Shown here piece after piece: positions 1-39,919 of a DNA stretch of 64,000 nucleotides. A program made the translations under genes and the position numbers. Position 1 is the stretch's first letter; every line of letters starts with the position of its first letter. Location of the stretch: positions 79,625 to 143,624 of the forward strand of contig CAIJHQ010000045.1 of assembly GCA_903820505.1 (NCBI GenBank). Direction: 5' to 3'. The DNA is from Candidatus Omnitrophota bacterium (GTDB taxonomy: Bacteria; Omnitrophota; Omnitrophia; Omnitrophales; Aquincolibacteriaceae). The notes under the pieces are model-generated. The model was not told the DNA's origin. It worked only from the letters and a program-made list of their open reading frames with translations, and made no database searches.

Positions 1-1787
1 CTGACACTTTTCGTAAAAATAAATTTGGAATATTCACGGCCTTCGATCGCCTGCCGCAAAAACACGATCAACTCTTCGGCCGTCACCTTGATCCCCTGCT
101 CCCGCAACAAGGCCCCCAGGACTTTCATCTGACCGGAGCTGAATGAAAATCCCTTACCCTTCTTCGGTGCATCCTGCGGCGGGACATCGGAAAAATAAAG
201 CTCATACCCCTCGCGGTAGCTCGGTGAAAGGATGTCGTAGGTCCCCGGCCGGAGATGACCGTATCGCTCGAGAAATGCCTCTTTGGAAAGCTCCCGGCGG
301 TCACTGGCCATCCGCTTGGTCACGGTGTCCAGAGATGCCATAAAATCGTCAAATTCGCCCGAACTGATCAATCCGGTCTTGACCATCGAACGCAGGAACT
401 GAACGGCAATAAAGCCCGCGCGCGCCAAACCGGCGAACGGCAGCGTCCCGTAACGGCAGCAATCCTCGACCAGCCAATAGATCTTCTCGATCGGGTTGAG
501 TCCCGAGCCCAAAACTTTCCGCTGCCGCTCCTTGAGCTCCTCGATCCTGCGCAGATCGTTCGTCATGATCCCGTTGTGCCGGGTCAAAATATTATTGGTC
601 AATTGGACCAACGCATCCTTGATCTTTTGGAGGTCCCGGTCCGAAAAACCATACCCTTTAAGCTTTTTCAGGTCCTCATCAAGCCCCAGGAAAAAACACG
701 AGAAAATAATGTCAAATTCGACCTTATCATGACTGCTGGGAGACGCATGGAGGCGCCCCAGGTAATAATCCGCTAAACGTGCCGCCAGATCTTCGTCGAT
801 ACCCTTCGGAATGAATGAATTAAAACTCACTCGGACATCGATATACGGGTGGCCGATCAAGGTGAGCAGCAGCGGGTAGGATCGCACATTGCGGTAACCA
901 TAGTCATCGCGCTGATAAGACCAGGTTTTATCCGTGATGAGCTCTTTATAGAGCGACAAGGCAAGCGGTCGCGGCTTAACGCCGATCATCTCGGCCGGGT
1001 TCCAATCCGGCATCACCCCCAGATACGTCCTGCTCCCGTGCAGATACGGGTGCGGCGCATTGATGTGATCGACCTTCATGTGGATCTTGTGCAGATAATG
1101 CCCCACCATGAAAGTCTTCGGGAGTTCCCGTCCCCCGCGAACGATGGCCCTGACCTGGAGAATATGGACCTGGCCGGACCCGTCGATCGCAAACTCGATA
1201 TCCAGGCAGTCGTTCTTGCAGACTTCCTCGACCTCCCGGATGGCCTCCATAAGTTTTTCGAATTTCCCGAATTTCGTTTTAAAATTGCGGAACTTGATGA
1301 AGGTCTTAAGTTTATTGGACCTTCCCGAAGTGACACTGTCGGTCCGGGCGGATTCCTCATCGTAATTGATGATGTAGTAAGGCGCCAGAGTATCCAGATC
1401 ACGGGTGAACACCACGCCGCTCATCCGGACATCCCGGACCATGGGCTGAAGGAAAACCTGGTTCCCCCCCGCCGCTTTCACACCGTAGGAACACACCACG
1501 GCATCGATCGAACGCCGCAGGGCGTCCCGGTCCGAGATCAAGACCCCGGCCACCGACATGAACTTGCCGGCATTCGAGCCCGTCAAAAGATCTTCGTCCA
1601 GCGAGGAAGATCGGACAATGAACGCCCCGTTGCTCCCCTTGAAAGAATCCTCAATGCAGCGAAGGCAGGCGTCTTCGCCGGCCGACCATTCGGCGACCGT
1701 AAATCTGCAAATAGGCAGCACGCGCGATTTCTTGAGCAGCGGCCGGATCTGTTCCAGCGTCTCCGCTTTGGTCCCTAATTCAATCAT
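1..1787 (-). CDS. PEP-utilising enzyme family protein (PPDK_N nucleotide-binding domain; PEP synthase/pyruvate,water dikinase-like). The 3' end is cut by the window edge.
   Basis: The minus-strand reading frame is open from the ATG at ~1787 to position 1. It is absent from the ORF track because there is no stop inside the window. The translation contains IVRSSSLDEDLLTGSNAGKFMSVAGV, which matches the VRSSA-x-EDlp-SFAGQ-x-T-x-LNV signature of the PPDK_N ATP-grasp domain. Plus-strand ORFs 255..776 and 849..1778 are antisense to it. Confidence 0.7.
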   Translation of the reverse strand, partial: MIELGTKAETLEQIRPLLKKSRVLPICRFTVAEWSAGEDACLRCIEDSFKGSNGAFIVRSSSLDEDLLTGSNAGKFMSVAGVLISDRDALRRSIDAVVCSYGVKAAGGNQVFLQPMVRDVRMSGVVFTRDLDTLAPYYIINYDEESARTDSVTSGRSNKLKTFIKFRNFKTKFGKFEKLMEAIREVEEVCKNDCLDIEFAIDGSGQVHILQVRAIVRGGRELPKTFMVGHYLHKIHMKVDHINAPHPYLHGSRTYLGVMPDWNPAEMIGVKPRPLALSLYKELITDKTWSYQRDDYGYRNVRSYPLLLTLIGHPYIDVRVSFNSFIPKGIDEDLAARLADYYLGRLHASPSSHDKVEFDIIFSCFFLGLDEDLKKLKGYGFSDRDLQKIKDALVQLTNNILTRHNGIMTNDLRRIEELKERQRKVLGSGLNPIEKIYWLVEDCCRYGTLPFAGLARAGFIAVQFLRSMVKTGLISSGEFDDFMASLDTVTKRMASDRRELSKEAFLERYGHLRPGTYDILSPSYREGYELYFSDVPPQDAPKKGKGFSFSSGQMKVLGALLREQGIKVTAEELIVFLRQAIEGREYSKFIFTKSV

Positions 1788-1877
1788 GTTTCATAGCCTT
1801 TGCCATAAAAAAGTATCATCAGGCGATTAGGTTAATCCCGACCGTCAGCAAAATCAAACAAAAACCCGCCTGTCAGA

Positions 1878-3659
1878 TCAAAGGATCGCGTAGATCGCGT
1901 ACTCGTATCGCGGATCCGCCGGGGCAACACCGCGATAGATCGCCTTGAAATATTTGGTATCGCGGACAAGATTGCGGATGTTACGGTCCGAAAGGGCGCC
2001 CTTTGGGTCCACGGGACCGGCAATCAGTACGTGCGTGACTCCCTGCAGTTTTATAAAGGCGATCGCGTCCGCCGCGGTCGTAAAACGCGTATCGTAACGG
2101 GTCTTCGCGCGAAACTCCGGCTCACGGATCAGGACACGATCAAAATAAAACCCTCGGACCTCATAGGCGTTCAGGATTATCGCTTTCCGCGGCAGGTTCG
2201 CGTTCACGAACCGGGACGCCGGATAAGACCTCTCCACGCGGGACAAATAGTCCGCCTCCGACTCAAGTCCCAACGCCGCTCCATACCCGTCCCTTCCATG
2301 ATAAAAGGCCGCTCCCAGATCAAGAAAAAGTGCCAAAAAGAACAGCCCTCTTACGAACCGGGACGCCCATTTCCCCAGCTCTGGCCGGGATATACAAAAA
2401 CCGATCGGCACCACCCAAAGAGCACACGCCGGAAAAAGAAACCGGAGGTTCTGCCGCGGTAGAAAAAGCCAGAGGACCAGGTAGATCGCAGAAAAAAAGA
2501 GCAGATTGTTAACAGTCTTCGGACGGTTCCGGATCAAAAAGACGCCCGGCAGGAACGCGAGATAAAGAACGCCGACCCGCGCCCACATACCCCCAAAATG
2601 CGCCGGATCCATGGTCATGAACCACGGAGTCAACCAAGGAACCATCCCCTGGATCTTCTTGGCCTGATAACCTTTTTCCCCGAAATAAAGAAAACTCCCC
2701 TCATACGCGTAGGACCGGAAATACCAGACACAGCCGATGAGGAACGCGACCAACGCAAAAACTGCCAAAGCCGAAACCGAACTTTTCAGTGAAATGCGCC
2801 TGCTGACCCATTCGAGGAATAAACCAAGTGATATTGCGATCGCCGCAAACGCGGCAAGATACTTGACCCCGAGAGCAAAACCCAGAAATGCGCCGGACAG
2901 CACGGCCCAACGGATCTCGTGATGTTCACTCCACCGGATCGCGGCAAAAAAACTGAAAAAGAGAAAAAAGGTAAGGGCAATATCGTTGTAGGCGATGGTC
3001 ATCTGATTGAAAACGCCGGGAGTCAGCCAAAAAACCAGCGAAGCGATCCCGACCCAGGACCTGGGCAAACACCTTTTCTCGATCGCCAGAATACCAAGGA
3101 CCGTCCCCAAGGCGGTCATGAGATGAAAAAGGTTCGCCATCCGGGTACCGTCCCACATGACCGAAAGGACATAGAACTGATTCAGCAATAAGGGAAAAAC
3201 CGAATTGACCCCGTACGGTACGTAATAGATGCAACCCGCCAGCGCGAACCGTTTGGGGATATCCAAGTGATACGCCAACGCATCATGGGCGGTAGAAGGG
3301 ATCAGGGCCTGGACCACGGCTAAAAGGAACAAGATCACCAGCGCCGTCGCATAAGGCGTAAACCAGGTGGCGCGGGCGATAACCCTCCTCACCAGGGAAA
3401 GCATCCTCGGAGAATAGAAAAAAACCGGCAGTGATAAGACGAGGAACGATCCGTAGAGAGCAAGGGTATGAAATCCGCCGCAATAGCCGACGGCAAAAAT
3501 GATCAGCCCGATCGTTCCGAAACCAAGACAGAACGCGAAGGCGAACCGTTCGGTCAAAGAATCAAAAAAGAATTCCGCGCGCGTAAGGATCCGGTCTCCC
3601 CAAAAAGCGGACACCAGCGAGACCCAGGCCACAAGCAGGAGAGAAACGATCTGCGCCAT
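1878..3659 (-). CDS. Polytopic membrane protein, putative GT-C-fold glycosyltransferase with a C-terminal soluble domain.
   Basis: 593 aa with more than 10 predicted TM helices, followed by a ~150 aa soluble C-terminus. It lacks the clear DE motif of GT39, so the family assignment is weak. Its position directly downstream of a GT2 polyprenyl-P-sugar synthase suggests a donor-acceptor pair. Confidence 0.45.
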   Translation of the reverse strand: MAQIVSLLLVAWVSLVSAFWGDRILTRAEFFFDSLTERFAFAFCLGFGTIGLIIFAVGYCGGFHTLALYGSFLVLSLPVFFYSPRMLSLVRRVIARATWFTPYATALVILFLLAVVQALIPSTAHDALAYHLDIPKRFALAGCIYYVPYGVNSVFPLLLNQFYVLSVMWDGTRMANLFHLMTALGTVLGILAIEKRCLPRSWVGIASLVFWLTPGVFNQMTIAYNDIALTFFLFFSFFAAIRWSEHHEIRWAVLSGAFLGFALGVKYLAAFAAIAISLGLFLEWVSRRISLKSSVSALAVFALVAFLIGCVWYFRSYAYEGSFLYFGEKGYQAKKIQGMVPWLTPWFMTMDPAHFGGMWARVGVLYLAFLPGVFLIRNRPKTVNNLLFFSAIYLVLWLFLPRQNLRFLFPACALWVVPIGFCISRPELGKWASRFVRGLFFLALFLDLGAAFYHGRDGYGAALGLESEADYLSRVERSYPASRFVNANLPRKAIILNAYEVRGFYFDRVLIREPEFRAKTRYDTRFTTAADAIAFIKLQGVTHVLIAGPVDPKGALSDRNIRNLVRDTKYFKAIYRGVAPADPRYEYAIYAIL

Positions 3660-3789
3660 GATGTCAACCCGCCCTATGCATTACGAGAGAAACAAAATAA
3701 GCTCCGAACACCGCCAAAACCCACAGAAACCAGAGCCCTTTGAGAACGGTTGCGATCAGCGAGGAGCGGTCAGGACTGGCCACGGTCCG

Positions 3790-4515
3790 TTATCCGGTCA
3801 TTCTGAAACGGTTTTTCTGAAAACGAAACCACCAAACCTTCAGGAGGGCCTCGAATACAATGTGGCGTGAGATCTTCGAGTCGCCGGCTTTGCGGTCCGT
3901 GAACAGGATGGGAGTTTCGATGATCTTGAAACCTTTTTGGAGAGCGCGGTATTTCATTTCGATCTGGAAGCAGTATCCGTCCGAATGAATGTTGTCCAGG
4001 TCGATCGTCTCCAGCACCTTGCGACGGTAGCAGATATACCCCGCGGTCATATCATTCACCGATACGCCGAGGATGATCTTGCTGTAAAGGCTCGCCATCT
4101 GGCTTAAGAGGACCCGGTAAACCGGCCAATTGACGATCTTCCCTCCCCGCATCCAACGGGAACCCACAACGATATCGCAATTTTTGATCTTTTCGAAAAA
4201 AACCGGCAAATAACGCGGACGATGCGATAGGTCGGCGTCCATTTCCATGAACAGATCGTAATCACGCGCAAGTCCCCATTGGAACCCTGCCAGATAGGCC
4301 GGCCCAAGCCCCTGCTTTCCAGGACGCCGGAGCAGGTGAATACGCGGATTCTTCCGTGCGAACGACCCAACAAGGTCCCCCGTGCCGTCAGGAGAATTAT
4401 CATCGACGACAAGCACCTCGATGCCCGGATCCACGTTCATCAGGCGCCCAAGCAGCCGTTCGACGTTATCTGCTTCATTGTAAGTCGGTATAACGATCAG
4501 CGTTTTCATGGTCAT
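3790..4515 (-). CDS. GT2 polyprenyl-phosphate sugar synthase (DPM1/ArnC-like).
   Basis: Begins MTMKTLIVIPTYNEADNV and contains VVDDNSPDGT and a DAD motif. This is the typical dolichol-P-mannose synthase-like GT-A architecture, ~240 aa with no TM tail. Its ATG overlaps the stop of the upstream GT-C gene (ATGA at 4512-4515). Confidence 0.8.
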   Translation of the reverse strand: MTMKTLIVIPTYNEADNVERLLGRLMNVDPGIEVLVVDDNSPDGTGDLVGSFARKNPRIHLLRRPGKQGLGPAYLAGFQWGLARDYDLFMEMDADLSHRPRYLPVFFEKIKNCDIVVGSRWMRGGKIVNWPVYRVLLSQMASLYSKIILGVSVNDMTAGYICYRRKVLETIDLDNIHSDGYCFQIEMKYRALQKGFKIIETPILFTDRKAGDSKISRHIVFEALLKVWWFRFQKNRFRMTG

Positions 4516-5993
4516 TTCTCTTCAAGGCGGAAGATCAGAAATGATCTGTCCGGGATCGCGACGGGTTTAAAATGCGAACGGACATAGTCCGAAAATTTTG
4601 TGGAGGCATAATACTCGGAGGGTCCGGAAATAACAAGAAATTTAGCCCCGTCCCTCCTTAACTTCTCAAGCCAGAAAATGGGATCGCCATAACCTTCCTG
4701 GAACAGCTGTTGGTGCCGCGCCTGCTTGATAAGATGCCGCCCCCCGGCTTTGGACATTCCAAGATCAAACGACCAGCCTTTCCTGTGACAATAATAAAGG
4801 AGCCCGGCACTGGGCCCGTATTGAACGATCACCACATCCTCCGGCCGTGATATCTGCTGGACAACGGAGCCGATGCGCGGCATATTGCGCTCCACCTCTG
4901 AAAACCGCGATGCCGGCGGAAGGTAATAACGCATCGCAAGCAAAATAAAGGCCCCGCAAAACAATAGTTTCACGGTGAGTCCCCAACGATCCCACAAAAG
5001 TCCCAGGAGTGACGTGATCAGGATGGCCACGGCCGGCGCCCCACAGAGTAGATAAAAAGGATGGTCCATGACCTTCTGAGGCAGAATAAGGATCAGGCTG
5101 AGGCTCCCCCACGCCCAGACCAGCAAAGCGACAGGTTCTTTCTTCAAACGGAACAAGCTGATCAACGCGAATGGAAAAAGAATCGGTGTGCACCAGTAAG
5201 TCCCGAGGATGCTTAAGATCCTCTTATAGAAATCAAAGGACTTGAACAGGGACGTGATCAAAAAGCGGCCCTCTCCGGACTGCGTAAAGAGACTTGTCTG
5301 GACATGCGCAGCGTCGTGAAATTGCAGCACATGCATCCAAAAAACCCACGCGGCGACAGGGATGGCAGCGCCGATCAAAAAAACAAACGTCGTACGAAAT
5401 GAAAATTTTTCACGGTTGATCCAGATCAAAAAAGCCGGCAGCGCGATCCCAAAATGGATGCGTGCCGTCAAGGCGAGCGAGAACACTAAGCCGCTCAGGA
5501 GGATCTTCGCCAACACGGCGGAATCCAGCAGCCAAAAGGAGAGCATTAAGAAAAAAAGAGCGGCCGCTTCATTCTGGAACGTGATCCCCGACAAAAGCAC
5601 CATCGGGAAAAAGGAAAAAAAGAATACGGTGAGGAGCGCTTTTTTTTCTGTCAAAAAACGCCGGGCGATCGGAAAGAGTAAGATCGTCGCCCCAAAGACA
5701 AAGATCCCGGCCTGGAACCTCCCCCACCACGGGATGCCGCCGCCCAGCAGGGTATTCGAAAGAAACGCGACCAGAGAACCGAACGGATAATACAGCAGGT
5801 GAAGCCCGGGAGCTCCATTGACCAGGATAAAGGTCCGCGGAATAAAAAGATCCGCGACAGAACCTCCGCCCATCATTTCCGCCATCATGGCATTAACGGC
5901 CTGATAACTCCCGAAATAACCTCCGAGCGGATTGGAAAAGGCCGGACACTTCATCATCAATGTAACGAGCGCGATTCCTAAGGAAATAAGCAT
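4512..5993 (-). CDS. GT-C glycosyltransferase, ArnT/PMT_2 (GT39/GT83)-like.
   Basis: 493 aa polytopic protein. The segment WGRFQAGIFVFGATILLFPIARRFL resembles the conserved ArnT/PMT_2 helix (aRlpsal-fg-l-vlllyllarrl). Stop overlaps the downstream GT2 start. Confidence 0.65.
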   Translation of the reverse strand: MLISLGIALVTLMMKCPAFSNPLGGYFGSYQAVNAMMAEMMGGGSVADLFIPRTFILVNGAPGLHLLYYPFGSLVAFLSNTLLGGGIPWWGRFQAGIFVFGATILLFPIARRFLTEKKALLTVFFFSFFPMVLLSGITFQNEAAALFFLMLSFWLLDSAVLAKILLSGLVFSLALTARIHFGIALPAFLIWINREKFSFRTTFVFLIGAAIPVAAWVFWMHVLQFHDAAHVQTSLFTQSGEGRFLITSLFKSFDFYKRILSILGTYWCTPILFPFALISLFRLKKEPVALLVWAWGSLSLILILPQKVMDHPFYLLCGAPAVAILITSLLGLLWDRWGLTVKLLFCGAFILLAMRYYLPPASRFSEVERNMPRIGSVVQQISRPEDVVIVQYGPSAGLLYYCHRKGWSFDLGMSKAGGRHLIKQARHQQLFQEGYGDPIFWLEKLRRDGAKFLVISGPSEYYASTKFSDYVRSHFKPVAIPDRSFLIFRLEEK

Positions 5994-5994
5994 C

Positions 5995-6876
5995 TTATAC
6001 TTTCTTGGCGACCATGATCGAACGGTTCTGAAGTCCCAATATCCGCGCGATCCCGAACAAAACCCGCAGGGCCAGGCGTGTCAGGAACGCGAATTTATAC
6101 CGCGCAAGATCGGTTTCTGTCTTCCAGTATTTAACGGCCGCAAAGCTGTTCCGCTCCAGAAGGCCTTTCAAGCCTCTTCCTGAAAAATAGCTCGTATGCT
6201 CAAGAACATACCACTGGGCTGCGGGTCCCCGAACTTTTCCGAAACTCAGCTTATAAAAAAGTGTCGCGAGGATCGATATCAGATTGGGATCGTACGGGAT
6301 GGCGACCAGAAGGCAGCCTCCCGGTTTTAGAAGCTCATGACATTTTGCGAGCAATTTCCCGGGGTCCTGAGGATGCTCGATCACGTCCCACAGCACAACA
6401 ACGTCAAAGCGACGCTGACTCGAATAGCGGAATACATTTTCCGCGATCCCCTCGATACCCCTTGACCGGGTTTTCTCGATGTTTTCCGTGCTGGAATCAA
6501 TACCAAAAACATTCCATCCTCGCGACTTTGCAAAAAATAAAAAATCCCCGGTACCACAGCCGATCTCGCATAAGTCACGCCCCGCGACACTTTTTCCCGC
6601 CTCGGTCAGAGCCCTGTCGTAATCCCGGGCCGTTTGGCTCGTGGATCTCAGCGGCTCATATTCATAGTATTGCTCGAGAGCCTTATTGATCTCACTGATC
6701 GAATCCGAGTTCTGATAGATCTCGATCTGAGATTTTTCATCCAGAGAAGGATCAAGATATTTGACCCCGCAGTCGCAAACGTAAACGGAAAAGCGCTCCA
6801 GTTTGATAAGCGGCTTCCCCATACGGCGCGTTTTGCATGCGGGACACTGGTTTTTCTCGGCAAACATTATGGCCAT
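5995..6876 (-). CDS. Class I SAM-dependent methyltransferase with an N-terminal zinc-ribbon.
   Basis: N-terminus has CPACK-x16-CDC (Cys4 ribbon). SAM motif I is LCEIGCGTGDF and the post-I acidic residue is in GIDSS. Sits 1 nt from the upstream GT-C gene. Confidence 0.75.
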   Translation of the reverse strand: MAIMFAEKNQCPACKTRRMGKPLIKLERFSVYVCDCGVKYLDPSLDEKSQIEIYQNSDSISEINKALEQYYEYEPLRSTSQTARDYDRALTEAGKSVAGRDLCEIGCGTGDFLFFAKSRGWNVFGIDSSTENIEKTRSRGIEGIAENVFRYSSQRRFDVVVLWDVIEHPQDPGKLLAKCHELLKPGGCLLVAIPYDPNLISILATLFYKLSFGKVRGPAAQWYVLEHTSYFSGRGLKGLLERNSFAAVKYWKTETDLARYKFAFLTRLALRVLFGIARILGLQNRSIMVAKKV

Positions 6877-6936
6877 GACAGAACCCCACGAAGACGAGCA
6901 TGGAACCTAGCTGCCCGGCAAAATGAAGACCCTGAT

Positions 6937-9315
6937 CTAGCTGTGTTCATTTGATCTTCCTCTTTTGATATCGTAAATGCTAAGCAAAAAAATCCCCGCA
7001 AAAAAGACAAGAGAGTAAGGGAGGACCGTCCGCCATAGCGGTTGAAAGCTAAAATCGACCCGGTAACTCCCCGCCCGGGGTATCAAGATCGCCCGAAAAC
7101 ACCCGTTCGCCCGGTAGATCGGGGTTGAGATCCCGTTGATCACAGCCTTCCAGCCCGGATAAAAAAGATCGCTCATCACAAGAAAGCCGGCCGCCGGCGC
7201 AGAAAGCGACAGCGCGACCCGGTCACCCGAATCTTCCGTGACTACGGCTTCCTTGAACAACGCGTGATTCCGCAGGTTCTGGAGCGTGGGATCTTCAAGA
7301 TAAACTTCCCTGCCAAGATCCGGCTCTCCGCGTTTCAAAGCCGAATTAAATTCGGCCCGGGATCTCGAGACGGCCCGGGAGACATAAAATGCCCGCGGAA
7401 GGGCTCGCGAATTCAATAAAAGCACGTGATCCGGAGCTTCTTCGAAGGTAGTCCACGCCGGCAAATCCAGTTTCCGGCTCGACAAAAGCCAACGTACCGA
7501 TAAAAAATCCAGGAGCGGTTTTTGCGCCCGCAAGGCCTGAAGGTCAGGAAGCACGGCTCGCTGGGAATCGTTGACATCGCCAAGACCCGCCATCAGATCG
7601 AAATAATCTTTCGGAAGAAGCGGCGAATATCCGCCCAGGACCGGCATGCCGTAGAGCATGTTATTGTGCGGCATAATAGGCAGCGCATCCGCGGAAGGCA
7701 GGTCAGAATAAAAACGGTGCAGACGTCCCTGGACGGGATCGTTCTTGATCGCGGCAATAATCGGAGAACCGGGCCGCAGGAACGATCTGGGTTCTAAATT
7801 ACCTTTGACCGTTGTAAAACCATAGGCATAAAGATTCGCAAAGATCAGGATACCGGCTGCCCAATAATAGCGTTGTTTCCAATTCCTCTCACCAAGGAAC
7901 AACCGTCGTACGACAAGGAGCGTGACCAGCATGAAAAGAATGAAGATCAGGTTGAACGGCTCACAGGGCTCGCTGATCCTCAGAGCCGCCGTAAAAAAAC
8001 CATGCACTTTCCCGGTGTAGACTTCGAACGAATGGGGGTGTATCGCGGAACCAATATAATGGCTCCGGACATATTCCAGCGCGATCCCCTTGATCGGCTT
8101 CTCGAACCAGAGCAGGCAGTGGCGAATCAGCGGCAATAAAAGAATGGCCAATGCGGTCAGAACACCCCATAGAGTCCAGGAACGGCGCGCTTCCGGTGAC
8201 GGTAATTTCCCGATCCCGAACGAGCACAGCACCGCGCCAAAACATCCGGCAAAGTACAGGAACTTCGACGGCGTCCGGAAACTGCCGAATCCGGTCCATT
8301 TGATCAGGTAATAATAGAGCGGATTGTACTTCCCAAGAGCGAGCAGCAAGCTGAGCACAAGAAGCGCCAGGATCACTTTTTCATGCCAGGATTTTTTTGT
8401 CAGAATGGCGTGGATCAAGAAGAAGAGCCCCAGGGCCGAGAAATACAGCTCCGCCTTGAGGACCCCGTCCCAATGCGGGAAAAAAAGGGTCCAAAGCGCA
8501 AGCGGATTGACCGAGCCCAAAAAAGCGAAGTCAACCGGGTAATAATAGCGGTTGGAAAGTTTTGCGAGTTCCCAGGTGGAACCCAGTTGCGGTAGCGCCA
8601 TCAGACCCGAAGCCAGCAGCACAAGACCGTAAGAAAATAAATTCTTCAAAACGAATGGGGCCCGCCTTGGCCCCTGGCCGTCCTTGAAAAGGCGAATCAA
8701 AAAATATACGGAAGAGAAAAGCACAGAATAAACTGCATACTGCAGGTATCCGGCCGTAAACTGAAAAGCATAAATGACCGCCAAAAATCCAAGGTAGCCC
8801 GGCCTGTTTTTTTTAAAGAACTTCTCGATCAGGAAAAGCGCCAGCGGGAACCAGACGAGAGTTTTCAGCGAAATGATATTGTAATAGTAGCCGCCTTCCG
8901 CCGTACCGAAAAGGTAGATGAGCGTACCAAGAATGGCCGCTTCCGTTTTTACACCGATCTCACGGACGAACAGATAAAAGAAACAGGCCGCGATGAAGAA
9001 ATGGAACAGAATGCCATAGGAATAGGCCACATCGAACGGCAGGAACTTATAAAAGACCCAGTTAACGATATAAAGGGCCCCCACCTGCCCTTCCGCCAGC
9101 AAAGGGAATCCTGTCGCAAAAAGGCTCGTCCACCATGGCAGCTGCCCGTGAGCGAGGGCCGCGCTGTAAAAAAAAGCCCATGGGTAATGCTGCTGCCGGT
9201 GGTCCCCGCTGTAAAAGCCGGTACTCAACGTCAGCGTCTCCGCGAAGAACAGCATAACCGCGGCGGCAAAGATCAGGAATGGCGCGTATTTTTTAAGCGC
9301 GTTCGACACCGGCAC
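6937..9315 (-). CDS. YfhO-family GT-C membrane glycosyltransferase.
   Basis: 792 aa with many TM helices. The N-terminal motif SGDHRQQHYPWAFFYSAALAHGQLPWWTSLFATGFPLLAEGQ matches the YfhO D-x3-Q-x2-P-W-GxxPxW signature. Apparent GTG start. Overlaps the upstream flippase-like gene by ~23 nt. Confidence 0.75.
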   Translation of the reverse strand: MPVSNALKKYAPFLIFAAAVMLFFAETLTLSTGFYSGDHRQQHYPWAFFYSAALAHGQLPWWTSLFATGFPLLAEGQVGALYIVNWVFYKFLPFDVAYSYGILFHFFIAACFFYLFVREIGVKTEAAILGTLIYLFGTAEGGYYYNIISLKTLVWFPLALFLIEKFFKKNRPGYLGFLAVIYAFQFTAGYLQYAVYSVLFSSVYFLIRLFKDGQGPRRAPFVLKNLFSYGLVLLASGLMALPQLGSTWELAKLSNRYYYPVDFAFLGSVNPLALWTLFFPHWDGVLKAELYFSALGLFFLIHAILTKKSWHEKVILALLVLSLLLALGKYNPLYYYLIKWTGFGSFRTPSKFLYFAGCFGAVLCSFGIGKLPSPEARRSWTLWGVLTALAILLLPLIRHCLLWFEKPIKGIALEYVRSHYIGSAIHPHSFEVYTGKVHGFFTAALRISEPCEPFNLIFILFMLVTLLVVRRLFLGERNWKQRYYWAAGILIFANLYAYGFTTVKGNLEPRSFLRPGSPIIAAIKNDPVQGRLHRFYSDLPSADALPIMPHNNMLYGMPVLGGYSPLLPKDYFDLMAGLGDVNDSQRAVLPDLQALRAQKPLLDFLSVRWLLSSRKLDLPAWTTFEEAPDHVLLLNSRALPRAFYVSRAVSRSRAEFNSALKRGEPDLGREVYLEDPTLQNLRNHALFKEAVVTEDSGDRVALSLSAPAAGFLVMSDLFYPGWKAVINGISTPIYRANGCFRAILIPRAGSYRVDFSFQPLWRTVLPYSLVFFAGIFLLSIYDIKRGRSNEHS

Positions 9316-10234
9316 GCCCCATCACAAGGTATTGGTTAAGAAATGGCAACCCGAGAATTCCGGGGACAAGATAGCGCAAGGTGGCAAAGAGCCCGATAAA
9401 AGCCATCTGTCCCGCCGGGGCATACGGAGCGAACAGAACGATCATGGCCGCATCCCGGGACCCGATCCCCGCGACCGTCATAGGGATCATCCCCACGAAG
9501 ATCGCCATGGGCACAAGCCCGAAAACATGGGCCCAGGCCACGTTCGCATGGATCGCCTGGAAAACAAGATAGAACTGAATGAGGTGCAGGAGCCAGAGAA
9601 AAAGCGAGACGCCCCAGATCGTCACCAGAAATTCCGGGTCGCGCTTGATCTCATTAAGATAATCCTGTGCATCGTGGAGAAAGCGCCGCAACTTTTCGGT
9701 GAATTTGTTGCCGCCCAGGGCGGTCAGCGCCCATTTTTGATCGAAATTCAAGAAATAGATCACGGGAAAGACCCCGATGACCAAGAGGGCGAACCCGGCA
9801 ATGATCAAAGCCGTCTTAGAAAAACTCGCGGCGCCCAGCGCCCCGATCAGGGCCATCGTGCTCAACGACGCGGTGTCCACGTAGCGCTCAAAGATCACCA
9901 CGTTCGTGGCCCGCTTGAGGTCGGTCCCCCATTTGCTCTTCAAAAAAACGGCCTTGCTCAGATCCCCCATTTTGGACGGGAGAAAAACATTCAGGGAAGA
10001 CGCCGCGAGGACAAGCTTGGTGGATTCCCAGAGCGTGATCCCGGCTTTTTTTTGGATCAAGAACTTCCATCGCCAAGCGGGGATCACGATCAGTGGAAAG
10101 AACATAGCGAGCGCGAGAAAGAATGTTCCTTTATCAAGGCGGACGACGTACTCGCGGAAGGCACGAAGATCGATCCGGGTGAAAATGACCGCCAAAATAA
10201 GAACCGTAAAAGCAAAGGCCAGAAGACGCTTCAT
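9293..10234 (-). CDS. UPF0104 / LPG_synthase_TM family membrane protein (flippase-like domain).
   Basis: The ORF track starts at 10378, but the likely start is the internal ATG at 10234 (MKRLLAFAF...). That ATG overlaps the stop of the upstream gene (ATGA). Signature RW-KFL ... NVFLPSKMGDLSKAVFLK is typical of the MprF-flippase-like UPF0104 family. About 8 TM helices. Confidence 0.7.
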   Translation of the reverse strand: MKRLLAFAFTVLILAVIFTRIDLRAFREYVVRLDKGTFFLALAMFFPLIVIPAWRWKFLIQKKAGITLWESTKLVLAASSLNVFLPSKMGDLSKAVFLKSKWGTDLKRATNVVIFERYVDTASLSTMALIGALGAASFSKTALIIAGFALLVIGVFPVIYFLNFDQKWALTALGGNKFTEKLRRFLHDAQDYLNEIKRDPEFLVTIWGVSLFLWLLHLIQFYLVFQAIHANVAWAHVFGLVPMAIFVGMIPMTVAGIGSRDAAMIVLFAPYAPAGQMAFIGLFATLRYLVPGILGLPFLNQYLVMGRAGVERA

Positions 10235-11862
10235 GGAAAGGTGTGCTCGAAGTGGACTTCGCGTTTCTCGTTGAGCTCCCGGAGGACAGGACCCAGCGAG
10301 ACCCAAGGAAGCAGGTTCCCCTGCTGAAAAGGCTGGCTGGTAGCAATATAAATAAAGGTCGGGTCGGAACCGATCCAAAGGTCCTCGACCCGCACGGAAT
10401 CGTCGGTAAGCCGGATCGAATACTTGACCTTATCAAGCGAGCGCAGGGGGATCTCTTTCCGTATCGAGACCGGTACCCGTTTTAACCGTTTCGTGATCGC
10501 TTTTTTCTGCAGTAACGTCCGCACGAAATTCGCCGGCAGGAACCGTGCGATCAGGACAAGAAAAGCGCGGAACAAAAGAAAAGACCCGGGTTTGAAAACA
10601 AGGTCGCGGTGTTCGTAGCACCCCCCCTCGATCACAAGCGTGTCACCGCGGACTTCGTGCTTCCAATCCGCGACGACCTGCGATATGAATTTCTGTCTTT
10701 TGTCCGTCGCGCCGACAAAACCGCAATCGCTGAATTTAAGCGTTCCGTTCCGGAAGTACTTGGCCGTCCCGCCTTTCCTTGTCGAGATCACGGCGTAATT
10801 TTTATCATCGGATACGACATAAAGTCCGGCTTGTTCGAAGAATTTTTTCAGGACGCGTCCGCCATCCTTTGACCGGACCTCCCGCGGCTCAAAAAAATCC
10901 CCGTGGGCTTGCAGGAAATTATACGTGTAGTGAATGAATATGCGGTCGTCATCGATGCAAGAACGTGTTTTTTTCTGAAGAGACAGAAGAAAAGCGTCCG
11001 CGGTCGGAACGGCCCAAGGGCTCAGTCCCCCCATGATCTCAAAACCGTGCGGCATGAAATGGAAGGTATTACGGCTTCCGTATTCGCCGCCGAAACTTCC
11101 GTCGGGGTGCATAAAATATGAGGCGAATTCGATCGCCCTGCAAAGCGGTTCCACGACAGCGGGATCGGATGACTTTTGATAATACTTGGCGAGAAAATCA
11201 ATGGTGAACGTCAGGTATCCGGGATCGCAGCCCTCGTATTCCGGGAACCAGCCTTCCTCGGTCTGCAGGGCGAGCAGCTTTGCCAAGCAGGCTTCCGCCT
11301 TCTCTTTGAATGCGGGGTCATTCGTCAAAAGGAAAACGTTGTAAAGGCCCAGGACGATCAATGCCTTGTGATTGGATAGCACGCCCGACTCTTTAATACC
11401 TTCAGTCGCCAGATAATTGGCGCGGCGTTTAAAAAAATCGAGGAATCCCGCCGCATCGGACTTTGTGACCAGCAGCGCTTCCGTGCAGGCGTAGAGGGAG
11501 AACGCCGTGGCGCCGGCCGCGCGTTCGAACGGGAAATAATCATCACAGGAACCGTCGGGGTGGGACGAGTGGCGGGCAAAATCGATCCCGGCCATGACAG
11601 TTTCCTGGATGCGCGCGTTCCCGTAATACGGGTTCGCCGGGTGTTTCAGGGAAAACACAAGGGCAAGCGGCAGGACGGATTCCTGATACATCCCGCTCGG
11701 AAAATCACTGCACCGGTAATGCCAGAAACCACGGTCGAAGCAACCATAGGTCGAACTCAAGCGGTTCCTGTCCGCGAGCTCCAGCAATTTCGGGATGTAC
11801 TGGATACCTTCGTTAAAATATAGATCTTTCAGGCGGGTGTCTGTCATAGGTTTTTGGATCAT
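10231..11862 (-). CDS. Hypothetical protein of 543 aa, soluble, with no family assigned.
   Basis: Clean ORF with an ATG start and codon usage like its neighbours. It has two related motifs, HPDGSCDDYFP and HPDGSFGGEYG, which suggests an internal repeat or toroid-like fold. No signal peptide is obvious. Confidence 0.5.
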   Translation of the reverse strand: MIQKPMTDTRLKDLYFNEGIQYIPKLLELADRNRLSSTYGCFDRGFWHYRCSDFPSGMYQESVLPLALVFSLKHPANPYYGNARIQETVMAGIDFARHSSHPDGSCDDYFPFERAAGATAFSLYACTEALLVTKSDAAGFLDFFKRRANYLATEGIKESGVLSNHKALIVLGLYNVFLLTNDPAFKEKAEACLAKLLALQTEEGWFPEYEGCDPGYLTFTIDFLAKYYQKSSDPAVVEPLCRAIEFASYFMHPDGSFGGEYGSRNTFHFMPHGFEIMGGLSPWAVPTADAFLLSLQKKTRSCIDDDRIFIHYTYNFLQAHGDFFEPREVRSKDGGRVLKKFFEQAGLYVVSDDKNYAVISTRKGGTAKYFRNGTLKFSDCGFVGATDKRQKFISQVVADWKHEVRGDTLVIEGGCYEHRDLVFKPGSFLLFRAFLVLIARFLPANFVRTLLQKKAITKRLKRVPVSIRKEIPLRSLDKVKYSIRLTDDSVRVEDLWIGSDPTFIYIATSQPFQQGNLLPWVSLGPVLRELNEKREVHFEHTFP

Positions 11863-15835: not shown

Positions 15836-16603
15836 TTGACATTACGCATTAAAAACATTAATCTTTCCCCTATGAATGCCGCGACTTTTATCAGTTTCAT
15901 CACCCCGATCTACAACGAAGAGTTGAACATCGCCGGGATGCTCAGAAACTTCTTTGCCGTCCTGAACGCCCATCCGGAATGGAACTGGGAAGTGATCTTG
16001 ATCGAGGACGGAAGTAAGGACAAGACCCGCGCTGTCCTTCAGAAAGAGATGTCCCAATACCCCAACGCAAAGCTGATCATCCATGAAAAGAACCAAGGAT
16101 ATACCCGCTCCCTCAAAGACGGGATCGCAGCCTCTCGCGGTAAGTACCTGATGTACATCGGAGCGGATGAGGAGTTCGATTCGTCCGAGATCCCCGCCTT
16201 TGTTGATATCCTGAAAAAGAACGAGACAGATGTCCTGCTGGGTGTACGCTGGCAACGCAACGCCTACCAGCTTTTCCGTTTCTTCCTGTCCGTGATCTAC
16301 ATTTTCCTGCTCAATTACCTGTTCAAGATCCGCATCAACGATTACAACTGGTCGCAGGCCTGGAGCCGAAAACTTCTTGATCATATCGACCTGACCTCCG
16401 CTTCTCTTTTTATACTTCCCGAGATCATCATCAAGGCCCATGACCTGGGTTACCGCATCAAAGAGATCCCCTCGAACCACCGCGGCCGCCAAGCCGGAAA
16501 ATCGTCGGTCAACATGAAGATCATGGGATCGGCGCTTTGCGAGGGGCTGAGATTCTGGTTCTACCGAAGATCAAAAAAATACCGCCCGGCAAAAAATCCC
16601 TGA
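15836..16603 (+). CDS. GT2 glycosyltransferase (GT-A fold).
   Basis: This is the only plus-strand gene in block 1. Motifs: ISFITPIYNEE, ILIEDGSKD, GADEEF (DxD). It has two C-terminal hydrophobic stretches. By eye its GC content is lower than that of its neighbours. The start may instead be the internal ATG at ~15872. Confidence 0.75.
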   Translation: MTLRIKNINLSPMNAATFISFITPIYNEELNIAGMLRNFFAVLNAHPEWNWEVILIEDGSKDKTRAVLQKEMSQYPNAKLIIHEKNQGYTRSLKDGIAASRGKYLMYIGADEEFDSSEIPAFVDILKKNETDVLLGVRWQRNAYQLFRFFLSVIYIFLLNYLFKIRINDYNWSQAWSRKLLDHIDLTSASLFILPEIIIKAHDLGYRIKEIPSNHRGRQAGKSSVNMKIMGSALCEGLRFWFYRRSKKYRPAKNP

Positions 16604-31620: not shown

Positions 31621-33042
31621 ATGGAACACGGCCTTCGACAATCCCAGACCCAAAAAATGGTTCTCTCCCCCCAGATGCGGGAGTATCTCCGTCTGCTCCA
31701 TCTTCCTATCGCCGAGCTTTGTCAGGCCGTCGAGGAGGCAGTAGAAACGAACCCCCTGCTAGAAGAAGTGTCCCGTCCCGCGGAGGAGACGCCCCCGGAA
31801 CCCGTTGGGGCTGAAACTTCCGACGAAGCGGAGGAAGATCCCGTTCCGGATAATTGGGCCGCCAAAGATCCGCTTGTTTTCACCAAAAACCCTCCGGACC
31901 TCTCGCGCCGCCGTGCCGCGGAGGTTCAAAAGATCAGGGATTTTCAGGAAACCCTGATCACACGGCCGGAAAGCCTTCTGGATTATCTCCAGTGGCAGGT
32001 CCACTTCCTGGAACTCGATGAAAAGCAAAAAGCGATCGCCGAGCAGATCATCGGAAACATCAACCACGACGGCTATCTGACCGCTTCCCCCGAGGAAGTA
32101 GCGACCGCCGCGGCAGCATCACCGGACCAGGTCCTGGAGATCCTTCAAAAGATCCAACAGCTGGATCCTCCCGGGATCGGCGCACGGAACTTGCGCGAGG
32201 CCCTTCTGATCCAGTTGGAAAGAAAAGGCCCGGAGGCCGCCCTGGCAAAGGAGATCGTCCGTGATCATCTGGACCTCCTGAGCAAAAGGGACCTCAGGAT
32301 GCTCGGCAAGATCTTCAACGCAAGCGAGCCGGATATCAAGAAAGCGGCGGAACAGATCTCCCGGCTGGAGCCCAAGCCGGGCCGCAGCTTTTATGTGGAG
32401 GAAACCCTCGCGATCACTCCCGACGCCACGGTCGCGATCAAGGACGGCACCGAGAACGACCTTGAGATCGAGGTCCATAATGAGATGATCCCCGAACTCC
32501 GCATCAACCCGGAGTACCGCGGAATGATCCGCGATAAAGACATCGACCCAAAAACCAAAGAGTTCCTCTCGACCCGTCTGACGAACGGCCTGGAATTCCT
32601 GAAAGCCCTGGAGCTCCGGAAATCGACCCTGCGGGCGATCACCGAAGAACTCGTCCGCGCCCAGCCTCTTTTCTTCACACGCGGGTTCGCGCACCTTCGC
32701 CCGCTGCGTCTTAAAGATATCGCGGAACGGCTGAACCTTCATGAATCCACGATCAGCCGCGCGATCCACGGAAAGTATCTCAAGACCCCGCAAGGAACAA
32801 TTCCCTATAAAAGTTTTTTTTCGCAAAAGGTGGAAACGGCCGACGGCGAGGGCGAATCACAAAAAAGCATCACGGAGCGGATCCGGAACCTGATCGAAAA
32901 AGAGGACCCGAAAAAACCTTCAAGCGATCAGGCTCTTGTCAGAATGCTCGAGGCGGAGGGGATCAGGATCGCCCGCCGCACGGTCGCAAAGTACCGGGAG
33001 CTTCTAAAGATCCTACCCACTCACTTGCGACGCCGACGTTAA
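31621..33042 (+). CDS. rpoN: RNA polymerase sigma-54 factor.
   Basis: N-terminal Gln/Leu-rich region (LRQSQTQKMVLSPQMREYLRLL). The C-terminal RpoN box is ARRTVAKYRE. 473 aa. Confidence 0.9.
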   Translation: MEHGLRQSQTQKMVLSPQMREYLRLLHLPIAELCQAVEEAVETNPLLEEVSRPAEETPPEPVGAETSDEAEEDPVPDNWAAKDPLVFTKNPPDLSRRRAAEVQKIRDFQETLITRPESLLDYLQWQVHFLELDEKQKAIAEQIIGNINHDGYLTASPEEVATAAAASPDQVLEILQKIQQLDPPGIGARNLREALLIQLERKGPEAALAKEIVRDHLDLLSKRDLRMLGKIFNASEPDIKKAAEQISRLEPKPGRSFYVEETLAITPDATVAIKDGTENDLEIEVHNEMIPELRINPEYRGMIRDKDIDPKTKEFLSTRLTNGLEFLKALELRKSTLRAITEELVRAQPLFFTRGFAHLRPLRLKDIAERLNLHESTISRAIHGKYLKTPQGTIPYKSFFSQKVETADGEGESQKSITERIRNLIEKEDPKKPSSDQALVRMLEAEGIRIARRTVAKYRELLKILPTHLRRRR

Positions 33043-33091
33043 GGACCCGCGATCTGGACGACTGGTTTGGAAATGGCCCGGAGGAAAAGAA

Positions 33092-33164
<73 letters not shown>

Positions 33165-33211
33165 GTGTGACAGCGGACGGCGATTATAACAAAACGTTAC
33201 GACAAATCGAG

Positions 33212-39168: not shown

Positions 39169-39318
39169 TCTATTTCCTTCATCGCTCGGTGCCGCCTTCA
39201 AACGGAATTCCTCCACTGGAAGTCGCTGCGAGAGTGGAACACCCGAGGCGCTTGGGCAGCAGAATACCCCTCATACTACAAATTTATACATAAAGGGCAA
39301 AGGCAGGCGGTCGGTATT

Positions 39319-39858
39319 CTACCGTTTCCGGGGATTTTTTAAATAAAAATAACCGATCACTGTTTTTCCGTCCTGGATCTTCCCCCGGCGGATCATACGG
39401 CCGATCTCGGACAGGCTGAATTCCCGCAACTCGAATTCCTCATCTTCATCCTTCGGCGCCGATGCCGGCCTGAGACTGGACGCGAGATAGAGGTGCATCT
39501 TCTCCCCCGAAACCCCCGGGGTCGGGAAAAAAGCGATGATCTTCTGAAGCCGGCCCGGTCTCATTCCGATCTCTTCCATCAACTCGCGTCTGGCCGCCGC
39601 GGAGAACGATTCCCCGGGTTCGCGCCCACCGGCGGGAAATTCCCAAAGGTGTTTCGCGAGGGGGAACCGGTATTGGCGCACCAGGATGTACTTTCCGGAG
39701 GCCGTCCGGGGAATGATCGCCACGCAACCGGGATGTTCCAGGACCTGCCTTGAGAGGACCTTCCCGTGCGGCGTCCGCACCCGGTAATTGACGAGGTGGA
39801 TCGGACCCTTCTTGAACAATACCTTTTTCCTGAGGATCTTATAATTTTTTTTCGTCAT
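39319..39858 (-). CDS. NUDIX hydrolase.
   Basis: Nudix box GGREPGESFSAAARRELMEEIG (GX5EX7REUXEEXGU). Confidence 0.8.
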   Translation of the reverse strand: MTKKNYKILRKKVLFKKGPIHLVNYRVRTPHGKVLSRQVLEHPGCVAIIPRTASGKYILVRQYRFPLAKHLWEFPAGGREPGESFSAAARRELMEEIGMRPGRLQKIIAFFPTPGVSGEKMHLYLASSLRPASAPKDEDEEFELREFSLSEIGRMIRRGKIQDGKTVIGYFYLKNPRKR

Positions 39859-39919
39859 CAGCGCATATCCGGCACTCTAGAAAGATCATCATCGGATGCA
39901 TCCCGGCCGCGTGAAATGG

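Follow-up and report, generated by a model that had tools for sequence, protein, structure and literature searches.

A probable L-glutamine kinase in an Omnitrophota glycosylation locus and a possible variant route of phosphoramidate transfer

In the 64,000-nucleotide stretch of DNA from a Candidatus Omnitrophota bacterium analysed here (the window), a minus-strand array of glycosylation genes reaches the first position with a gene for a dikinase-like enzyme, which raises the question of what such an enzyme phosphorylates in this setting. The preliminary description put forward a glycan or a lipid-linked sugar. Here, we report that the gene, as judged from its sequence, very probably encodes an L-glutamine kinase (EC 2.7.3.13) of the Cj1418 family; the enzyme is of a known kind, and the pathway is a new variant. 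In Campylobacter jejuni, Cj1418 phosphorylates the amide nitrogen of glutamine (PMC10971088, PMC6429109), and Cj1415–Cj1418 convert glutamine, ATP and CTP into CDP-phosphoramidate 3′-phosphate (PMC11800397). The glycan O-methyl phosphoramidate is known only from Campylobacter according to a 2019 review (PMC6429109).

The kinase gene and its surroundings

The kinase frame opens with an ATG at position 1787 of the minus strand and extends over 595 codons to the window edge. A public contig, L167, which we reached through a search with the 289-aa protein P0126 encoded 3′ of the kinase, is 100% identical to window positions 1–7271 and supplies the remaining 185 codons, including the predicted catalytic His737 (L167:7272–7827), to give the full 780-aa protein at L167:5485–7827. 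A scan of metagenomes with the full-length kinase as query had not returned this contig. PF01326 and PF00391 are its only Pfam domains. The nucleotide-binding domain that had been called clear corresponds to a real PPDK_N match (E = 1.2e-9, 38.3 bits, cut-off 27), which is partial and covers residues 45–131 only. The phosphohistidine domain expected beyond the window edge is found there, as a PEP-utilizers His domain (PF00391, residues 703–773) with the motif GGANSH737MAIR, and the third domain proves to be a family-specific central helical domain lying between the ATP-grasp and His domains. An alignment of 40 family members including that of C. jejuni contains 110 invariant columns, among them H737 of the GGANSHMAIR motif, R59, S60, E65, D66, A73 and G74 of the nucleotide-binding motif, and the central-domain motifs GVMPDWNPAE, YGYRN, GTLPFAG-AR and GHLR.

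The AlphaFold2 (AF2) model of the kinase (pLDDT 87.6) places an ATP-grasp domain first, followed by a substrate domain and a C-terminal His domain, and the best solved fold over the whole length is that of rifampin phosphotransferase. The comparison with antibiotic phosphotransferases made earlier was thus the better structural analogy: the enzyme RPH-Lm (PDB 5HV1/5FBS) shares with the kinase its fold, its domain order and a dikinase-type chemistry through phosphohistidine. As an identity, however, rifampin phosphotransferase was rejected, as the two proteins are only about 16% identical, the central domain is specific to each family and the context here is biosynthetic, not one of resistance. 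With the NCBIfam model for rifampin phosphotransferase, the C. jejuni family member reached 26 bits (cut-off 999) and the window protein had no match at E ≤ 1e-6; searching PDB sequences with only the part of the kinase encoded in the window returned nothing beyond chance matches.

The kinase neighbourhood comprises four PMT_2 GT-C genes, GT2 genes, a methyltransferase, a protein of the LPG_synthase_TM type and dTDP-sugar genes (Table 1). No gluconeogenic genes are adjacent, in agreement with the preliminary description, whose spacing of 90 bp between the kinase start and the end of the upstream GT-C gene is also exact. On the minus strand this spacer holds no terminator-like or promoter-like consensus (a scan of positions 1–4000 stayed at background level), so co-transcription of the GT-C and kinase genes is plausible on sequence grounds. 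The kinase had further been taken for the last gene of the array; this holds within the window, and on L167 four more co-oriented genes follow.

Table 1. Coordinates of the kinase gene, its neighbours and the distal membrane protein (window positions unless marked L167)
Feature	Position	Strand	Remarks
Probable L-glutamine kinase ortholog, N-terminal 595 of 780 codons	1..1787	minus	ATP-grasp/PPDK_N and most of central helical domain
Nucleotide-binding motif IVRSSSLDEDLLTGSNAGKFMSVAGV	1542..1619	minus	kinase residues 57–82
Spacer between GT-C and kinase genes	1788..1877		90 bp
GT-C glycosyltransferase, PMT_2, 593 aa	1878..3659	minus	directly upstream of kinase also in L001 and L083
GT2, dolichol-P-mannose-synthase/ArnC-like polyprenyl-phosphate glycosyltransferase, 241 aa	3790..4515	minus	
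GT-C-like membrane protein, 493 aa, weak PMT_2 match	4512..5993	minus	partner of GT2
SAM-dependent methyltransferase, Methyltransf_23, 293 aa	5995..6876	minus	not Cj1419/Cj1420 type
Membrane protein, 792 aa	6937..9315	minus	no Pfam match; relatives with precomputed YfhO match
Divergent CDP-alcohol-phosphotransferase-like membrane protein, 289 aa	L167:10001–10870		last gene of operon

Kinase identity and substrate

The kinase aligns with an open reading frame of the C. jejuni capsule locus at 42% identity and E = 0 over 779 aa (residues 2–776 against 4–776). This reference frame is flanked by two methyltransferases and DUF2972 on one side and by GATase, cytidylyltransferase, APS-kinase-like, KpsC and KpsS genes on the other, matching the order Cj1413–Cj1422, and the flanking Cj1417-, Cj1416- and Cj1415-like genes together with KpsC and KpsS support its identity as Cj1418. 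Cj1418, which belongs to the O-methyl phosphoramidate (MeOPN) capsule pathway of C. jejuni, and the window kinase match end to end (779 versus 780 aa) and share a three-part architecture, the His motif GGANSHMAIR and an NCBIfam model (NF004508/PRK05849). With a cut-off of 501, NF004508 gives 938.8 bits for the full-length kinase, 695.4 for the window fragment and 1173.1 for the C. jejuni protein. In a BLASTP comparison of all open reading frames of the C. jejuni and C. coli loci with those of the window, the only correspondence besides the kinase was a generic RmlA-type one. The host here is an omnitrophote and not a member of the Campylobacterota, and the gene lies in a GT-C/GT2 polyprenyl-phosphate-sugar array instead of a Kps capsule locus.

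Several public records label homologs of the kinase 'phosphoenolpyruvate synthase'. A housekeeping PEP synthase or pyruvate phosphate dikinase can nevertheless be set aside with near certainty, for no PEP/pyruvate-binding TIM-barrel domain is present in the full-length protein, the PpsA and PPDK models of NCBIfam score 33–39 bits against cut-offs of 456–883, and an earlier PpsA/PPDK annotation of Cj1418 itself has been corrected experimentally (PMC10971088).

The two genes that directly follow the kinase bear on its substrate. The first, whose start overlaps the kinase stop, encodes a 211-aa class-I amidotransferase-like (GATase) protein that shares 39% identity with its C. jejuni equivalent and has gamma-glutamyl-CDP-amidate hydrolase as its best NCBIfam match (E = 8.5e-51), at 172.8 bits and hence below the curated cut-off of 250. 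The next encodes a 244-aa cytidylyltransferase with 45% identity to its C. jejuni counterpart. This order of kinase, GATase-like hydrolase and cytidylyltransferase is the same in the Cj1418 locus, and among 91 well-flanked loci from many phyla the kinase is accompanied by the GATase in 71 and by the cytidylyltransferase in 77. Given the orthology to Cj1418 and the genes orthologous to the two subsequent pathway enzymes directly 3′, the likely substrate is free glutamine and the likely product feeds the synthesis of cytidine diphosphoramidate.

By analogy with the characterised C. jejuni enzyme, the N-terminal ATP-grasp domain would bind ATP, the phosphoryl group would be carried on His737 of the swivelling C-terminal domain, and the family-conserved central helical domain would bind L-glutamine, whose amide nitrogen would be phosphorylated. 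The cytidylyltransferase would then convert phospho-glutamine and CTP to CDP-glutamine, from which the hydrolase would release glutamate, leaving cytidine diphosphoramidate (CDP-NH2). The first three steps of the complete MeOPN system (Cj1415–Cj1422), from phospho-glutamine through CDP-glutamine to CDP-amidate, are thus likely the same here.

With an identity of just 42% to the characterised enzyme, a shifted substrate is conceivable, and PPDK-like kinases that form N–P bonds on other substrates do exist, such as the peptide-phosphorylating TalE (PMC6482885). We regard it as unlikely that this Cj1418-family enzyme acts on another small amide or amine, be it a different amino acid or a peptide. 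TalE is less than 20% identical to Cj1418 (PMC6482885), whereas the window kinase is an end-to-end member of the family and shares its 110 invariant columns. Moreover, the partner hydrolase is of the glutamine-amidotransferase type, and a partner resembling gamma-glutamyl-CDP-amidate hydrolase makes sense only if the intermediate is derived from glutamine.

The same partners weigh against an enzyme that, like a glucan, water dikinase, phosphorylates a glycan or lipid-linked sugar directly. Such an activity would suit a glycosylation locus with a GT-C gene 90 bp away, and both a PPDK_N and a His domain are present. The full-length protein, however, contains neither a carbohydrate-binding module nor any further Pfam domain, it is orthologous to a glutamine kinase with conserved phospho-glutamine-processing partners, and the family retains these partners in loci that lack GT-C and GT2 genes, such as the capsule locus of C. 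jejuni; we therefore hold a glycan dikinase to be highly improbable. Glucan, water dikinases have N-terminal carbohydrate-binding modules and a nucleotide-binding domain located C-terminal to the His domain. The order in the kinase is the reverse, with ATP-grasp first and His last, and α-glucan, water dikinase was rejected as an identity on this basis and for want of a carbohydrate-binding domain in Pfam. What survives of the earlier idea is the functional tie to a phospho-type decoration of glycoconjugates; the part that made the kinase itself the glycan-modifying enzyme is not supported, given a Cj1418 ortholog in translational coupling with orthologs of both phospho-glutamine-processing enzymes. 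Most likely, the substrate of the kinase is a free amino acid, and it is a different enzyme, acting several steps further on, that modifies the glycan.

Departure from the Campylobacter pathway

Beyond CDP-amidate the locus departs from that of C. jejuni, and counterparts of Cj1415, Cj1419/20 and Cj1421/22 are absent from the 77.6-kb neighbourhood formed by the window and L167. Over this stretch, a hidden Markov model (HMM) built from 122 homologs found no Cj1415-type kinase, a cluster HMM found no methyltransferase of the Cj1419/Cj1420 type, and an HMM search together with BLASTP found no DUF2972 transferase (Cj1421/Cj1422). DUF2972 occurs in only 7 of the 91 full-flank loci overall. A SAM-dependent methyltransferase is encoded in both systems, although the one here is of a different subfamily (Methyltransf_23 type). 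In place of the APS-kinase-like CDP-amidate 3′-kinase and the DUF2972 transferase of the MeOPN system, the operon here encodes a CMP kinase (Cmk) and a CDP-alcohol-phosphotransferase (CDP-AP)-like membrane protein.

The 289-aa membrane protein matches AF2299 by profile (E = 1.7e-9), its ortholog in L001 scores 23 bits with Pfam PF01066 (cut-off 22), and the top 12 Foldseek hits of its AF2 model (pLDDT 91.8) are all CDP-APs. It resembles AF2299 and IPCT-DIPPS (PDB 4O6M, 4MND) in fold (TM 0.58), in the DxxDGxxAR...GxxxD part of the signature and in having as partner a cytidylyltransferase whose product is a soluble CDP-linked donor; unlike them, it has no cytosolic domain and carries an insert of about 20 residues in the signature. 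Across 49 family members D86, D89, G90, A93, R94, G115 and D119 are invariant, and the fourth Asp of the signature D-x2-D-G-x2-A-R...G-x3-D-x3-D is replaced, after a longer spacer, by an invariant His123; this replacement counts against the transfer step proposed below. The family forms a small, separate group of about 73 clusters at scores of at least 233 bits, after which scores drop to 125 bits.

Cmk scores as a typical (d)CMP kinase (198 bits against a cut-off of 135.6) and could be the housekeeping copy of the genome. A role as functional analog of Cj1415 was considered and judged less likely, given this standard score and a homology to the Cj1415-like protein that is confined to the P-loop.

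We tentatively infer, with somewhat less than even confidence, that the 289-aa membrane enzyme transfers phosphoramidate directly from CDP-amidate. In contrast to Campylobacter, CDP-NH2 would be used without 3′-phosphorylation, and the group would be moved to the hydroxyl of a membrane-bound acceptor with release of CMP, which the co-operonic CMP kinase would recycle. The acceptor may plausibly be a polyprenyl-phosphate sugar, the presumed product of the adjacent DPMS-like GT2; the adjacent methyltransferase, a candidate O-methylase of the phosphoramidate, could methylate the transferred group, and delivery of the decorated sugar beyond the cytoplasmic membrane would fall to the GT-C enzymes.

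Alternatively, the assignment of the kinase may be right and the remainder of the route classical, as in Campylobacter, with a Cj1415-type 3′-kinase and another transferase encoded elsewhere in the genome, and with Cmk and the CDP-AP-like gene serving some other role, for example a lipid head group or a CDP-activated alcohol. An APS-kinase-like (Cj1415-type) gene is kept in 74 of the 91 loci, which makes 3′-phosphorylation the rule in the phosphoramidate pathway; the search for Cj1415-like and DUF2972 genes covered 77.6 kb of the genome; Cmk resembles an ordinary (d)CMP kinase; and one locus, L172, has the pair of Cmk and CDP-AP-like genes (the cassette) although no module of the glutamine-kinase or PEP-mutase type lies within 8 kb. 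Set against this is the behaviour of the monophyletic kinase clade to which the locus belongs. In all seven of its loci the cassette follows the kinase module, co-oriented with the kinase, GATase and cytidylyltransferase genes, and the reading frames of Cmk and the CDP-AP-like protein abut or overlap each other; an APS-kinase-like gene occurs in none of the seven, yet is present in the sister lineages L086 and L088. The cassette also occurs with either of two head-group modules, each of which leads to a CMP-P-X compound. On this evidence we view a classical route as a serious possibility, if a rather doubtful one. The locus provides a testable transferase candidate outside Campylobacter and Helicobacter, namely a CDP-alcohol-phosphotransferase-like enzyme with a CMP-recycling kinase.

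Association of the cassette with phosphonate loci

The second of these head-group modules is of the phosphonate type: in four loci (L168–L171) the cassette stands behind a PEP-mutase-cytidylyltransferase module. Such modules make CMP-phosphonates (PMC6697681). Genes of the window array travel with the cassette as well. The GT2 gene is a specific ortholog of the GT2 that accompanies it, including in phosphonate-type loci, and orthologs of GT2 and GT-C are both found with it in the phosphonate loci L168, L170 and L171; orthologs of the 493-aa GT-C-like protein adjoin it in L083, L087, L168, L170 and L171. In L001 the 293-aa methyltransferase forms one fused protein with the 792-aa protein; it also has orthologs after the cassette in L084, L085 and L171. 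The 792-aa protein belongs to the conserved set common with L171 (31% identity over 762 aa), so that this phosphonate-type locus holds orthologs of both.

These associations point, as a possibility that we hold somewhat below even confidence, to a second, undescribed phosphoramidate route within a modular six-gene system that accepts interchangeable P–N and P–C head-group modules. The six genes would be those for Cmk, the CDP-AP-like protein, the 792-aa YfhO-like protein, the methyltransferase, the DPMS-like GT2 and the GT-C. The P–N module would consist of glutamine kinase, GATase and cytidylyltransferase, and the P–C module of PEP mutase-cytidylyltransferase, decarboxylase and dehydrogenase. 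A lipid-linked sugar, or some other acceptor in the membrane, would receive the P–N group, and Cmk would recycle the released CMP. The locus links phosphoramidate and phosphonate decoration through common machinery and, if the modular reading is true, it would be part of a modular system by which envelope glycoconjugates acquire unusual phosphorus groups.

The Ppm-PntC fusions that make CMP-AEP (Rice et al. 2019, PMC6697681) follow the same logic, in which a P-X group is converted to a CMP conjugate and passed to a surface glycoconjugate. There, the head group is P–C and formed by PEP mutase, whereas here it would be P–N and drawn from glutamine by the kinase; the transferases proposed for those systems are LicD-like (PMC6697681) and not CDP-alcohol phosphotransferases.

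For annotation, the kinase assignment replaces the labels 'phosphoenolpyruvate synthase' and 'hypothetical protein' that members of this family carry in uncultured phyla such as Omnitrophota. The family is very widespread: database searches place it in more than 7,000 clusters, and two collection scans each matched more than 500 stretches.

Completion and assignment of the kinase gene

The last gene that the window shows of the minus-strand glycosylation array opens at an ATG and runs for 595 codons to the window edge. Its nucleotide-binding motif (residues 57–82) lies in a PPDK_N domain (Pfam, E = 1.2e-9, residues 45–131), in agreement with the preliminary description, and the fragment matches NCBIfam NF004508 (PRK05849; named 'hypothetical protein' only) with 695 bits over model positions 10–603 of 789, so that about 185 residues were missing from the window. 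A 780-amino-acid database protein, P0001, differs from the fragment at one residue. Through a protein encoded downstream of the kinase we reached the 133.5-kb ENA contig L167, whose first 7,271 bases are 100% identical to window positions 7271–1; it is thus the window's own sequence, extended 13.6 kb beyond the edge. The complete 780-residue kinase (938.8 bits against NF004508) carries a PEP-utilizers mobile domain at residues 703–773 with the motif GGANSH737MAIR, the phosphohistidine domain that had been predicted to lie past the edge. No PEP/pyruvate TIM-barrel domain was found in the complete kinase, and its scores against the PpsA and PPDK models (at most 39 bits, cut-offs 456–883) reject that identity, bearing out the earlier view that the enzyme is not gluconeogenic.

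An AlphaFold2 model of the kinase (38 homologues; pLDDT 87.6, pTM 0.84) matched rifampin phosphotransferase (RPH) best over the whole chain in a Foldseek search of the PDB (E about 3e-19), followed by ATP-grasp enzymes and, weakly, PPDK; a profile search agreed with this ranking. As in RPH, the His domain is C-terminal, whereas in PpsA and PPDK it is central and the TIM barrel comes last. Glucan-water dikinases also differ from the kinase in domain order. The middle domain, the third one that the preliminary description sought to identify, is modelled as a helical substrate domain and holds more than half of the 110 columns that are invariant among 40 aligned kinases, C. jejuni and C. coli included; H737 is also invariant.

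Several JGI records label homologues 'glutamine kinase'. Scanning a single genome for each species gave 80 loci, including C. jejuni GP013. There, genes for a DUF2972 protein and two methyltransferases lie ahead of the 779-residue homologue, and those for GATase, nucleotidyltransferase, APS-kinase-like protein, KpsC and KpsS come after it, a gene content that matches the published Cj1413–Cj1422 capsule region. The window kinase is 42% identical end to end to this protein, which scores 1173 bits against the same NCBIfam model. Cj1418 adds phosphate to the amide nitrogen of glutamine (PMC10971088, PMC6429109). Cj1415–Cj1418 jointly convert glutamine, ATP and CTP to CDP-phosphoramidate 3′-phosphate, and Cj1421 and Cj1422 are required for placing MeOPN on sugars (PMC11800397). 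The kinase adds a member to an enzyme family already described, and the surrounding pathway is a variant newly seen here. One homologue (P0005, 915 amino acids) has an N-terminal XRE-type HTH domain, and the same kind of HTH is fused to Cj1416-like nucleotidyltransferases at two phosphonate-type loci. A Candidatus Methanoperedens-labelled contig (L037) also carries the kinase–GATase–cytidylyltransferase module.

Features of the window, of its extension L167 and of compared loci
Feature	Position	Strand	Remark
Kinase	1787–1; L167:5485–7827	−	motif at 1542–1619
GATase (Peptidase_C26), 211 aa	L167, directly after kinase		start overlaps kinase stop
Nucleotidyltransferase, 244 aa	L167, second after kinase
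Cytidylate kinase (Cmk), 244 aa	L167, third after kinase
Membrane protein, 289 aa	L167, fourth after kinase
GT-C, PMT_2-type	1878–3659		directly upstream of kinase
GT2	3790–4515
GT-C	4512–5993
Methyltransferase	5995–6876	−
792-aa membrane protein	6937–9315	−
LPG_synthase_TM ORF	9293–10378
543-aa protein	10231–11862	−
GT2	15836–16603	+	Pfam E = 1.4e-26
Mechanical ORF	15842–16492	−	no family match
Housekeeping stretch	31621–45675		rpoN (+)
NUDIX hydrolase	39319–39858	−
GIY-YIG and DUF4062 pair	L167:11062–13188		outside window
HTH–kinase homologue, P0005	L083:10001–12748
HTH–nucleotidyltransferases	L168:836–1951; L171:868–2019
792-aa protein–methyltransferase fusion	L001:2446–5775		1109 aa
Nonulosonic-acid-type genes	L172:5844–8861; L168:11195–16858; L167:13447–20548		NeuB, CTP_transf_3, DegT, GFO_IDH

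Conserved partners and the predicted substrate

The GATase that follows the kinase has by far its best NCBIfam match to gamma-glutamyl-CDP-amidate hydrolase (E = 8.5e-51, below the model cut-off); it is 39% and the nucleotidyltransferase 45% identical to the C. jejuni counterpart. Of 163 kinase loci, 91 had flanks of no less than 3 kb on the upstream side of the kinase and 4 kb on the downstream side. GATase is present in 71 of these and a cytidylyltransferase in 77, and kinase, hydrolase and cytidylyltransferase therefore form a widely conserved module to which the window gene belongs. This membership speaks for free glutamine as the substrate rather than the glycan or lipid-linked sugar previously proposed. 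Of that interpretation, the non-gluconeogenic role, a putative dikinase chemistry and the tie to glycan phospho-decoration stand, and direct glycan phosphorylation falls. An APS-kinase-like gene occurs in 74 of the 91 loci, fused to the kinase in 14, and DUF2972 in just 7. The fusions (970–1220 amino acids; P0093, P0118, P0119; loci L046, L061, L066–L068, L070, L072–L074, L076, L077 and others) would tie step one of the classical pathway to step four.

HMM searches of the window and L167 (77.6 kb of the genome) found no Cj1415-like APS kinase, no DUF2972 and no Cj1419/20-type methyltransferase. The closest kinases (57–75% identity; L001/L033 from a Candidatus Omnitrophota MAG, L030, L083, L084, L085 and L087) likewise have no APS-kinase-like gene beside them, and all their loci run from kinase through GATase, cytidylyltransferase, (NUDIX) and Cmk to a membrane protein of 277–296 amino acids. 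The last two frames meet or overlap; L084 and L085 show a further overlap with the methyltransferase that follows. A neighbour-joining tree built from 161 kinases groups these loci in a single clade, whose sisters (L086, L088) and neighbouring lineages have the APS-kinase arrangement; the Cmk/membrane-protein arrangement is thus a derived variant. The window's homologue of the cassette NUDIX (115–116 bits, 35% identity) is unlinked to the kinase, 37 kb away beside phosphofructokinase.

The membrane protein and a proposed pathway

Profile and model comparisons identify the 289-amino-acid protein as a putative divergent CDP-alcohol phosphotransferase. PF01066 barely passes threshold on the L001 orthologue, a profile match to AF2299 has E = 1.7e-9, and all top 12 Foldseek matches of the AlphaFold2 model (pLDDT 91.8) are CDP-alcohol phosphotransferases. 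The signature D86-x2-D89-G-E-x-A-R-Y ... G115-x3-D119-x2-N-H123-Y, invariant in 49 members, differs from the usual one in that His replaces the fourth Asp. The subfamily has few members and a sharp edge: some 73 clusters score 233 bits or higher, after which scores fall to 125.

Five further members were inspected. In L168–L171 a (NUDIX)–Cmk–transferase cassette lies right behind a PEP-mutase–cytidylyltransferase fusion and a phosphonopyruvate-decarboxylase-like TPP enzyme, with an iron alcohol dehydrogenase also ahead of it in all except L170. Such PEP-mutase–cytidylyltransferase modules make CMP-activated phosphonates for cell-surface tailoring (PMC6697681). The genes accompanying the cassettes are the specific orthologues of those beside the window kinase: the dolichol-P-mannose-synthase/ArnC-like polyprenyl-phosphate glycosyltransferase (GT2, 3790–4515) is 40–44% identical to cassette-linked GT2s, against about 25% for other window paralogues, and the second GT-C, the methyltransferase and the 792-residue protein show the same pattern. 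A conserved gene set thus pairs with either a phosphonate or a phosphoramidate module, both of which end in a cytidine-linked P–X compound. Independently, the Cobalt Borg is reported to have a MeOPN-like kinase–GATase–cytidylyltransferase module, phosphonate genes and a CDP-alcohol-phosphotransferase-like gene in one region, the last read by the authors as phospholipid synthesis (preprint 10.1101/2024.11.05.622173).

By orthology and context, glutamine would be phosphorylated via His737, and CDP-glutamine made and then hydrolysed to CDP-amidate. The membrane protein may then move phosphoramidate to a membrane-bound acceptor, releasing CMP for recycling by Cmk; the methyltransferase may O-methylate the phosphoramidate, and GT2 and GT-C may make and deliver the carrier-linked sugar. 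These latter steps are weakened by a Cmk that looks like ordinary cmk, by the Asp-to-His change, by partial genome coverage (77.6 kb) and by L172, whose cassette has no glutamine-kinase or PEP-mutase module within 8 kb, is surrounded by nonulosonic-acid genes and is unexplained by this model. Nonulosonic-acid-type genes also recur near the cassette in L168 and L167.

The surrounding array

The gap of 90 bp between GT-C and kinase is as first described, and a minus-strand scan of it found no promoter-like or terminator-like consensus. The surrounding 24 kb hold four PMT_2 GT-C genes, four GT2 genes (three minus, one plus), a Methyltransf_23 methyltransferase, LPG_synthase_TM and GDSL proteins, two large proteins without a Pfam match, dTDP-rhamnose-type genes and UDP-glucose dehydrogenase. 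The plus-strand GT2 is a real gene, overlapped by the mechanical ORF. The 792-residue protein has no Pfam match in the window (relatives bear a precomputed YfhO match); its fusion to the methyltransferase in an Omnitrophota relative (L001) indicates a functional link. The 543-residue protein, without a Pfam or NCBIfam match, keeps its place in L001, L083 and L084 (55–66% identity), and its ORF overlaps that of LPG_synthase_TM by about 150 nt, so one start is probably mis-set. Just past the operon, a GIY-YIG protein and a 504-residue DUF4062/HATPase_c_4/Fic-like_C protein precede HTH_17 and sugar-aminotransferase genes, a possible mobile or defence insertion. The unrelated housekeeping stretch, with two GGDEF proteins and LptD upstream, encodes rpoN, phosphofructokinase, polyphosphate kinase, Ppx and both glutamate synthase subunits (large and small); that glutamate synthase lies near a pathway consuming glutamine is probably chance.
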